Shown one piece after another: positions 2,174 to 3,185 of a stretch of DNA of 7,590 nucleotides. The notes under the pieces were generated by a model, which saw only the letters and a program-made list of their open reading frames with translations, made no database searches and was not told the DNA's origin. The translations under genes were made by a program, and so were the position numbers. Within the stretch, counting starts at the first letter, position 1. Every line of letters starts with the position of its first letter. This DNA is from a virus. Its lineage: Duplodnaviria; Heunggongvirae; Uroviricota; Caudoviricetes. Where the stretch lies: IMG/VR virus record IMGVR_UViG_2778261559_000019; one strand, written 5' to 3'.

Positions 2174-3185
2174 AAAGGTGAAAACCGGCAGTTCATCCAG
2201 TAAGTCAGTATTGACCTGGCTTGCTGATATGTGCGGTGCCGATTTGTGTGCATACCCGTCTGTATCTGCACTGGCAGAAGTAACGGAACTGAACAAAAAG
2301 ACTGTGCAGGACAGCTTACGACACCTGATGGAGATTGGGTTAATTGTTGATACCGGTGAGAGAAAAGGCAGAACAAAGCAAATTGTGGTGTACCGACTTA
2401 TCGGTGTAGAAGAAAGTGTTGCCGAGCCTGAATACACCCAAAAACGGGAGTCTTTAAAGGTGGGTAAAATTGGTGCTGTTAATAAAAACAGTACCGAAAA
2501 TGGTTATGTTTCAGCACAAAACAGACCCAAAAACAGAACTCTTAGCTGCATGGAAAATAACCAAAGACACCCAAATTTTCCATCAAAGACACCCAAAAAC
2601 GGATCACGGAACCCAAAGGAACCCAAAGATCTAAACCCCACACATAACGCACGCGAGAGTGCTCCGACCAGTGAGCAGGAAGTTTTGTCGTTACAGGCAG
2701 CCCCCCCTGTATTCCTGTATGGCCTGAGCGAACCCATCGGAAAATTCCCGATGAGCGATAGCTGGTATCCGTCACGGGATTTTCGACGACGGGCTGCGTT
2801 GTGGGGGATGGCTTTGCCGGAGACAGAATTTACACCTGCTGAACTTGCCGCCTTCCGGGACTACTGGGCAGCGGAGGGGAAAGTGTTTACGCAGATTCAG
2901 TGGGAGCAGAAATTCGCCCGTCACGTAAATCACGTCAGGGCGCAGGTTAAACCAGTCAGCAAAGGGGTAAACCATGCAGCAGCACCAGGTGGCACCGCAT
3001 CACGGGCAGTTCAGGAAATTCGGGCAGCACGTGAGCAGTGGGAACGTGAAAACGGATTTATCAGCGACGGAAACGGCCTGGAAGCTGTGGGAACTCATGG
3101 GGGTGGTTTATTCGAACCGCTGGATCCAGAAGAACGGGGCCGCACCTTCGAAGCTCTGGATTGCACAGATTGGCGCGATGACTGA
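2145..3185 (+). CDS. phage replication initiation protein (O-like): N-terminal HTH domain, low-complexity linker, DnaT-like C-terminal domain
   Basis: ATG at 2145 with AGGGG 5 nt upstream (the ORF track's 2070 start is an upstream TTG). C-terminal GKFPMSDSWYPSRDFRRRAALWGMALPETEFTPAELAAFRDYWAAEGKVFTQIQWEQKFAR matches the E. coli DnaT C-terminal region as recalled. The linker is encoded by iteron-like DNA. Confidence 0.82.
   Translation: MSIDALRWAKKVKTGSSSSKSVLTWLADMCGADLCAYPSVSALAEVTELNKKTVQDSLRHLMEIGLIVDTGERKGRTKQIVVYRLIGVEESVAEPEYTQKRESLKVGKIGAVNKNSTENGYVSAQNRPKNRTLSCMENNQRHPNFPSKTPKNGSRNPKEPKDLNPTHNARESAPTSEQEVLSLQAAPPVFLYGLSEPIGKFPMSDSWYPSRDFRRRAALWGMALPETEFTPAELAAFRDYWAAEGKVFTQIQWEQKFARHVNHVRAQVKPVSKGVNHAAAPGGTASRAVQEIRAAREQWERENGFISDGNGLEAVGTHGGGLFEPLDPEERGRTFEALDCTDWRDD
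2523..2631. repeat. iteron-like direct repeats (candidate replication origin) inside the initiator gene linker
   Basis: Five or more copies of an ACCCAAA core: agACCCAAAaac (2523-2534), CAAAGACACCCAAA twice (2562-2575, 2584-2597), GGAACCCAAAG in tandem (2608-2618, 2619-2629). An AT-rich stretch lies just upstream (2460-2520). Position is analogous to ori-lambda within gene O. Confidence 0.45.

Follow-up and report, generated by a model that had tools for sequence, protein, structure and literature searches.

The DNA analyzed here is a stretch of 7,590 nt (the window) from the IMG/VR virus record IMGVR_UViG_2778261559_000019, assigned to the Caudoviricetes, and it corresponds to the early-right region of a lambdoid prophage of Escherichia coli. 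In its replication module, the gene of a replication initiator is followed by the gene of a helicase loader similar to the P protein of phage lambda (hereafter P), and the two genes overlap out of frame by 212 nt. This overlap, proposed in an earlier note on the window and confirmed by the coordinates of both open reading frames (ORFs), is the subject of the present analysis, which argues for a shared coding segment maintained across genera, with P probably translated from the ATG at 2974. The features of the module are as follows:

2145–3185, plus strand: initiator gene, 346 aa
2431–2627, strand not applicable: iteron-like direct repeats with a ACACCCAAA core, repeat families D1–D3
2745–2945, plus strand: DnaT-like DNA-binding domain of the initiator, residues 201–267 (Pfam PF17948, E = 9e-17)
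2962–2967, plus strand: Shine-Dalgarno sequence AAGGGG for P, inside the initiator coding sequence
2974–3185, plus strand: out-of-frame overlap of 212 nt, initiator residues 277–346 and P residues 1–70
2974–3639, plus strand: P-like helicase-loader gene, full-length form, 221 aa
3000–3047, plus strand: initiator-tail motif S-R-A-V-Q-E-I-R-A-A-R-E-Q-W-E-R, family consensus SrAvQqiRaAre.wer
3069–3096, plus strand: onset of P-frame selection, P residues ~33–41, motif AW.LWE.
3097–3140, plus strand: zone constrained in both frames, containing ATG 3097 (M42), a possible secondary start
3141–3185, plus strand: acidic end of the initiator tail with its stop TGA (3183–3185), containing ATG 3178

The initiator ORF ends with the TGA at 3183–3185 and likely starts with the ATG at 2145 (the mechanical ORF opens at 2070); an identical 1041-nt coding sequence is annotated by the Prokaryotic Genome Annotation Pipeline (PGAP) in a 100%-identical genome. 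P is read in frame +1 relative to the initiator, whereby within the overlap the third codon position of P coincides with the first, and its second with the third, position of the initiator codons. Two further in-frame ATGs are located inside the P ORF at 3097 (M42) and 3178 (M69), just as the earlier note had listed them, but its description of the latter as an ATGA-type junction was not correct: the genes would share 8 nt there (ATGACTGA) instead of 4. For the P gene, public records give at least four different starts:

Start at 2974, 221–223 aa: many NCBI, ENA and Logan entries
Start at 3097, 180–181 aa: PGAP in Salmonella, Klebsiella and Citrobacter
Start at 3178, 153 aa: PGAP in E. coli; phage Rac-SA53
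Start at 3217, ~140 aa: PPompW phages and Citrobacter phage Chris1

P homologues of 215–223 aa are known from many genera, and the shortening of the loader gene, by which most genome annotations hide the overlap, is a systematic annotation error.

The conservation of the overlap was followed in 31 loci, fetched one per species genome and encoding P relatives at 43–92% identity, which together with the window made 32. An equivalent overlap was present in 29 of them, reaching down to approximately 43% P identity, and its length from the ATG to the initiator stop varied from 149 to 224 nt. The genera concerned are Escherichia, Salmonella, Citrobacter, Enterobacter, Klebsiella, Kluyvera, Pluralibacter, Phytobacter, Scandinavium, Buttiauxella, Pectobacterium, Serratia, Rouxiella and Samsonia. 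In all 29 loci, the upstream ORF kept the same frame relation to P (+2), the P frame was open for at least 36 codons upstream of M42 (at least 42 in all but one) with an in-frame ATG at −93 to −126 relative to M42, and the initiator frame ran 52–124 nt beyond the M42-equivalent codon (88–124 nt in 28 of the 29). Indels within the overlap were all multiples of three; in other words, both frames stayed open in diverged relatives with frame-preserving indels. The alignment of homologues presented an initiator running past 2974 over the P frame, and not the pattern that the earlier note had named as refuting, with an initiator ending before 2974 or a P protein beginning at 3178.

Three loci departed from this arrangement. 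In Leclercia adecarboxylata NCTC13032 (L028, ~3100–3190), a 1-nt indel directly after M42 swaps both frames, so that the frame of the P start leads into the initiator tail and the initiator frame into P; the locus represents a pseudogene or else an assembly error. The locus of Ca. Symbiopectobacterium (L032, 2850–3120) has stops in both frames, as expected in a decaying symbiont prophage. Finally, Erwinia sp. MMLR14_017 (L029, 2971–3540) carries an orphan P of 189 aa with no initiator upstream, adjoining a gene for a transporter of the phosphotransferase system type; its start (MFNNSPDTPVWQLWDTM...) lies 16 residues before M42, and this P may represent the remnant of a loader or a domesticated one.

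The indel in Leclercia, together with the finding that most of the long co-directional overlaps in prokaryotic annotations are due to sequencing errors or recent frameshifts (Palleja et al., 2008; PMC2478687), would be in line with an artefactual origin of the overlap, which the earlier note had also considered. The probability of such an origin is negligible: the region is 99–100% identical in many E. coli genomes, the same frames are found in hundreds of independent E. coli assemblies, in 43 gapless IMG/VR copies and in the 29 diverged loci, the overlap keeps its triplet indels, and each frame has its own conservation (see below). Positions 2000–3700 are 100% identical to O111:H8 chromosomes, and 2030 of 5426 complete E. 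coli genomes match the region, with 907 of the 5426 containing at least 80% of the stretch. The IMG/VR scan returned copies of 96–100% identity and was used for the polymorphism count alone.

The second line of evidence concerns the start site of P. The AAGGGG at 2962–2967 is separated by a 6-nt gap from the ATG at 2974, and its duplex with the anti-Shine-Dalgarno (anti-SD) sequence has an energy of −8.0 kcal/mol versus a background of −3.3 ± 2.6 (all positions in these genes), where 4% of positions reach −8 kcal/mol or lower and ~17% reach −6 or lower; the good ribosome-binding site claimed for 2974 was thereby verified. The Shine-Dalgarno (SD) sequence and the ATG were present at this position in all 29 overlapping loci, nearly every one of which, when aligned on the initiator protein, reads GGAGG(T), then 5–9 nt, then ATG. 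The anti-SD energies at the three candidate positions in these loci were the following:

2974 position: mean −10.1 kcal/mol, −6 or lower in 29 of 29 loci
M42: mean −6.7 kcal/mol, −6 or lower in 19 of 29 loci
3178 position: mean −4.1 kcal/mol, −6 or lower in 2 of 29 loci

The initiator codon above the ATG is invariably NAT, with a next codon beginning with G, and its residue varies among N, H, D and Y; likewise, the purine run of the SD is kept although the initiator residues above it change (G, R, K, E, S). Such variation of the initiator residues over conserved SD and ATG bases points to selection on the start site and not on the initiator protein. A start at 2974 is supported by these sequence comparisons. 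The RNA around it (2900–3040) folds no better than shuffled sequences (z = −0.77), with most of the SD unpaired in the predicted fold, which gave no support to a structure-gated coupling at the P start.

If P started at 3178 or 3217 instead, the two genes would overlap by 8 nt or not at all, like ordinary coupled genes. The start at 3178 is the current RefSeq annotation of a 100%-identical genome, both codons are used in phage records, and the arrangement resembles the 4-nt O/P junction of lambda. However, ATG 3178 is replaced in distant relatives by TTG, CTG, TTC, CTC, TGC or TGT, its SD energy is at the background level, and the P-frame selection, the Pfam match, the family core and confidently predicted helices, including the helix of residues 25–46, are already found upstream of it, so that approximately half of the equivalent of lambda P domain II would be lost (see below). 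The start at 3178, offered earlier as one of the options, was therefore rejected, and any start this far downstream is very improbable.

The position of P in frame +1 to the initiator, with an SD-like element upstream, might also be read as programmed +1 frameshifting that yields an initiator–P fusion, the element acting as a stimulator as in prfB. Yet, on inspection (slippery sites were not searched for systematically), the initiator frame showed no stop or obvious shift-prone codon after the SD; it continues for 70 codons with its own conserved motifs, the distance between the SD and the conserved ATG has the geometry of an initiation site, and an orphan P with its own start exists. This makes a frameshift-derived fusion extremely improbable.

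The question of which frame is constrained, and where, was addressed in 21 non-redundant loci by computing, for each codon position, the mean pairwise nucleotide difference, with the non-overlapping parts of each gene serving as the shadow-frame controls. In the initiator-only and P-only flanks, the third position was the most variable (0.56 and 0.62, respectively), and the DnaT-like domain, which is the last initiator domain before the overlap, showed this usual initiator-frame periodicity (0.56 at position 3). At 2997–3068, the periodicity was still that of the initiator frame, whose third position varied by 0.64–0.68, and from ~3069, i.e., 28 nt upstream of ATG 3097, it switched to the P frame, with P position 3 being the most and position 2 the least variable. 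The amino-acid identities along the overlap were as follows:

2997–3044: 0.46 in the initiator frame, 0.23 in the P frame
3069–3096: 0.31 in the initiator frame, 0.47 in the P frame
3097–3140: 0.42–0.43 in the initiator frame, 0.62 in the P frame

The initiator-tail motif at 3000–3047, which is likely an amphipathic helix, is encoded by bases that also specify a variable, predicted-disordered part of the P N-terminus, and the P-frame excess over 2977–3068 was marginal (p = 0.036). At 3069–3096, the P-frame identity was above the shadow-frame expectation (p = 2.8e-5), with the excess continuing beyond; both P tryptophan codons (TGG) are fixed here, and the initiator residues over them vary among L, M and V (NTG). 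The next segment, 3097–3140, reads MG.IYSNRW..KNG in P and G.dGgnl.epld.EER in the initiator. Its initiator-frame identity of ~0.42, compared to 0.29 expected from the P constraint, was reached by 0 of 139 control windows (per-codon Mann-Whitney p = 3e-4), the wobble variability of P was 0.45–0.47 versus 0.57–0.68 downstream, and Lys53 of P is AAG in 19 of 21 loci, giving Glu in the initiator frame. In the remaining part, 3141–3185, the P wobble variability was near neutral (0.58–0.60), the sequence being mostly dictated by P codons.

Synonymous sites, whose examination had been suggested earlier, pointed in the same direction, with a codon identity of 0.485 in 3100–3180 compared to 0.418 in the P-only region (p = 0.039). 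The initiator frame was open in 21 of 21 non-redundant loci, against ~0.28 per locus expected by chance from synonymous P codon choice. Moreover, polymorphic sites among 29 close haplotypes from IMG/VR were rarer in the overlap than in the flanks (25/212 versus 125/691, Fisher p = 0.035). Purifying selection within the overlap could thus be assigned to each of the two frames. Judging from these patterns, the dual coding is largely partitioned, the initiator frame dominating the first ~95 nt and the P frame the last ~115 nt, and a simultaneous constraint on both frames is demonstrable only at ~3097–3140 (~44 nt).

P belongs to the Pfam family Phage_lambda_P (PF06992), which it matched with 61.2 bits at a gathering score of 26; residues 60–188 were aligned with the profile positions 32–161, and the match opens at nt 3151. 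The family profile found the lambda P chain 8v9t (E = 2.2e-6) with the alignment beginning at profile position 57, and BLASTP of lambda P against the window P aligned from residue 86 only. The direct comparison with lambda cannot, therefore, decide on the start, and a comparison within the family is needed. The claim that the similarity to lambda P extends upstream of the internal ATGs holds for 3178 but is not shown for 3097, the Pfam match beginning at residue 60. Within the family, the conserved core extends from residue ~35 and the P-frame conservation reaches upstream of 3097, to ~3069–3076.

An AlphaFold2 model of the 221-aa P, built from a 31-sequence alignment with a mean predicted local distance difference test score (pLDDT) of 71.8, had pLDDT values <50 at residues 1–27 and 193–201 and helices between them, the first of which (residues 25–46) spans M42. 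The top three Foldseek hits of the model were lambda P chains (9oa1, the DnaB–lambda P complex, E = 1.6e-5), aligned over 199–229 columns with TM-scores of 0.4–0.5, which are low because the P domains are flexibly linked. Lambda P opens with an N-terminal lasso that is probably disordered (domain I, up to residue 29 or 40 depending on the delimitation used), followed by a compact domain II (~30–41 to ~119), domain III (120–192) and a C-terminal lasso (PMC12661323); the authors of that work speculate that lambda O is engaged by the free N-terminal lassos. The 221-aa form has the same layout, with helical domains II and III between a disordered N-terminal domain I and the C-terminal lasso; residues 1–33 of this form, variable and predicted to be disordered, resemble domain I of lambda P in the model. 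Judged by this layout, the 153-aa and 140-aa forms would be without domain I and approximately half of domain II, and the 180-aa form would cut the first helix.

Several observations weigh against a 212-nt overlap with P starting at 2974, and some of them would suit a start at ATG 3097 (M42), by which the overlap would shrink to 89 nt and the upstream 41 P-frame codons would be untranslated. M42 is nearly invariant, its context is moderately SD-like with the energies given above, and it is the PGAP start in other genera. Furthermore, P residues 2–33 are barely constrained, as the marginal excess at p = 0.036 indicates, and in simulations the P frame from M1 to M42 was open by chance in ~58% of loci. 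Given this weak constraint, the case for 2974 is made mainly by the conserved start site, and the frame-openness simulations, which are supportive for the initiator frame and weak for P upstream of M42, were left unused for it. The last ~15 initiator codons show hardly any independent constraint, two ATGs were candidates in L021 and L025, of which the one with the better SD was chosen, and the loci are phylogenetically related, so that the p-values and probability products are approximate.

Against a start at 3097 stand the far stronger SD and ATG at 2974, retained in 29 of 29 loci despite the changes of initiator residues, the significant P-frame selection at 3069–3096, and the first helix, which would be cut. 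One locus (L019) has CTG in place of the M42 codon, and the orphan P of Erwinia begins 16 residues upstream. In addition, M42 falls within the conserved motif AW.LWE.MGEIYSNRW, and the conserved Trp-Glu codons TGGGA(G/A) also account for its SD-like context. Replacement of the 2974 start by the one at 3097 is thus improbable, while its use as an additional start, giving two P isoforms, is a tentative possibility with better, but still modest, prospects. Of the alternatives raised in the earlier note, the first, about 70 genuinely dual-coding codons, is favored by the start signal in 29 of 29 loci and the selection in both frames. Overall, we assign a probability of approximately 0.8 to the reading that the overlap is real and evolutionarily maintained, with ~70 codons dual-coding and P starting at 2974.

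The initiator itself is not a homologue of lambda O. It matched the Pfam DnaT family (PF17948) with 61 bits (threshold 25), and its N-terminus matched HTH_36 with 20.9 bits, i.e., under the gathering score of 25, which is suggestive of a helix-turn-helix (HTH). No match to Phage_rep_O (PF04492) was obtained in the Pfam search at E ≤ 0.01. The label "O-like" used earlier is consequently appropriate for the role and position of the protein but not for its homology, and on domain content the initiator is an analogue of lambda O, not a member of the Phage_rep_O family. Its layout includes a weak HTH_36 N-terminus, an iteron-bearing linker, the DnaT-like domain and a conserved C-terminal tail; the combination of a DnaT C-terminal domain with an N-terminal HTH is that of the DnaT-domain (DopC-like) initiators. 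Between the HTH and DnaT-like domains, the gene contains 5–6 repeats of the ACACCCAAA type (CAAAGACACCCAAA / ACACCCAAAAAC). By analogy with the iterons inside gene O of lambda, the repeats at 2431–2627 are a candidate replication origin of the module.

The tail of the initiator, with the consensus SrAvQqiRaAre.wer...G.dGgnl.epld.EER...lD..Dw.dd, is not tied to this architecture. According to Pfam searches of the fetched loci, the tail and the overlapping P are joined to at least five different initiator architectures:

HTH_36 + DnaT initiator: window and L004
Unassigned N-terminus + DnaT: L013 and L021
HTH_36 + DnaD_N-like region, without DnaT: L017
True Phage_rep_O N-terminus (94 bits): L018
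DUF1376 initiator: L019
Initiator without a significant Pfam domain: L023

The tail motifs were kept even with unrelated upstream domains, and in the loci of differing architecture the similarity to the window starts roughly at the SD and ATG of P. The exchanged unit is, therefore, essentially the P translation unit, into which the upstream initiator reads. A homologue search with the tail alone (79 aa) gave just partial E. coli fragments, uninformative on the diversity of architectures, and BLASTP of the tail against lambda O showed no similarity.

In the proposed mechanism, both genes would be carried on one polycistronic mRNA. Ribosomes would read the initiator (HTH + DnaT-like) through to the UGA at 3183–3185, and the internal SD (2962–2967) with AUG 2974, located 70 codons before the initiator stop, would start the loader in the +1 frame; P would thus initiate independently while other ribosomes finish the initiator. 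Lambda O's C-terminal domain is the part taken to engage the P–DnaB complex. By analogy with lambda, the two protein ends encoded by the overlap are expected to cooperate, and the initiator tail, with its helix SRAVQEIRAAREQWER and the acidic motif LFEPLDPEER, is likely a loader or helicase recruitment element. The shared DNA might also keep the tail and its cognate loader together in mosaic recombination, an idea which fits the finding of the tail-plus-P cassette on at least five origin-binding architectures. It has to be said that both the interaction and the recombination lock are arguments from analogy, and that co-transfer would follow trivially from shared DNA. The further-reaching idea that the overlap is not mere compaction but a functional device, in which the initiator tail and the N-terminal lasso of the loader bind each other, is rather doubtful. 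If it were true, the mosaic recombination of lambdoid phages could not break the initiator–loader specificity, a matching adaptor tail would come automatically with the fusion of any origin-binding domain upstream of the P start, and ribosomes crossing the P start during the translation of the initiator could set the initiator:loader ratio.

Among known systems, the O-P module of lambda has the same plan: an initiator gene with internal iterons, followed by the loader gene P in one transcript, and lambda P shares with the window P its Pfam family, fold and the disordered N-terminus preceding helical domains. In contrast, the O/P overlap of lambda is 4 nt (39582–39585) compared to 212 nt here, and lambda O differs from the window initiator, which has a DnaT-like domain and no Phage_rep_O match. 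Another relative is the DopC/DopE pair, of phage origin and domesticated, which consists of an HTH_36 + DnaT_C protein and a P-like one (Brezellec et al., 2017; PMC5509034). As in the window, a protein with HTH_36 and a DnaT C-terminal motif is paired there with a P-like protein of PF06992, but the window module is part of a prophage and contains iteron-like repeats. The text of PMC5509034 makes no mention of a dopC/dopE overlap, and the dopC/dopE loci themselves were not checked.

Long overlaps in viruses often have one disordered partner and a constraint segregated between the frames (e.g., PMC9119678). The overlap described here is similar in being out of frame, in its independent internal start, and in one product being disordered where the other is constrained. 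Here, neither protein is a de novo orphan, both being conserved essential replication proteins whose ends are shared; the overlap is terminal (tail over head), and not one gene nested in another. In prokaryotes, a large survey recognized no genuine co-directional overlap above 60 bp, and the longest one accepted there as real was holD/rimI of Enterobacteria, with 32–56 bp (Palleja et al., 2008; PMC2478687). The holD/rimI overlap is likewise co-directional, conserved across genera and was judged real by the comparison of orthologues; the overlap studied here, with its 149–224 nt, is approximately four times longer and is located in mobile prophage DNA.

The replication module is embedded in the following genes:

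1411–1638, plus strand: cro-like (Cro/CI-like) ORF, assigned by ORF and Pfam
1622–2173, plus strand: YdaT-family ORF, assigned by ORF and Pfam
3673–4407, plus strand: DUF1627 protein gene, downstream of P

The cro-like and YdaT-family ORFs have a same-strand overlap of 17 nt, and the latter, ending at 2173, overlaps the initiator start (2145) by 29 nt on the same strand; the cro-like gene is frameshifted according to PGAP in the 100%-identical genome. On the other side, the DUF1627 gene adjoining P is conserved, and its 5′ flank matches the Rac prophage of E. coli K-12. There, the neighbor of DUF1627 is ydaV, encoding a DnaC-like ATPase, and not P, which shows that related prophages have different loader types in the same slot. 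The region 3′ of the replication module (4573–6025) contains cargo genes according to the annotation of the identical genome, namely, a frameshifted fimbrial-protein pseudogene and paa (AcfC-family adhesin) at 5267–6025. It is followed by a hok/sok-type toxin-antitoxin locus at 6214–6516, with an Rfam sok RNA match at 6214–6363 on the plus strand (103.9 bits) and the end of a Hok-like ORF at 6516 (MKQQKAMLIALIVICLTVIVTALVTRKDLCEVRIRTGQTEVAVFTAYEPEE). Close to the right end of the window, at 7476–7545, a 19-nt unit (CTGCCGTCCGGCATCGTCC) is present in ~4 tandem copies.

In a literature search, which was not exhaustive, no description of this initiator/P overlap was found, and the overlap represents a previously undocumented, well-supported example of overlapping phage genes. 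For practical work on these loaders, it means that studies of the annotated 153-aa P would lose the N-terminal lasso and part of domain II. As an overlap that crosses genera with measurable selection in both frames, it provides a clean natural case of two essential proteins sharing sequence, and the portable cassette of tail and P gives a hint at how this class of initiators may recruit its loader.

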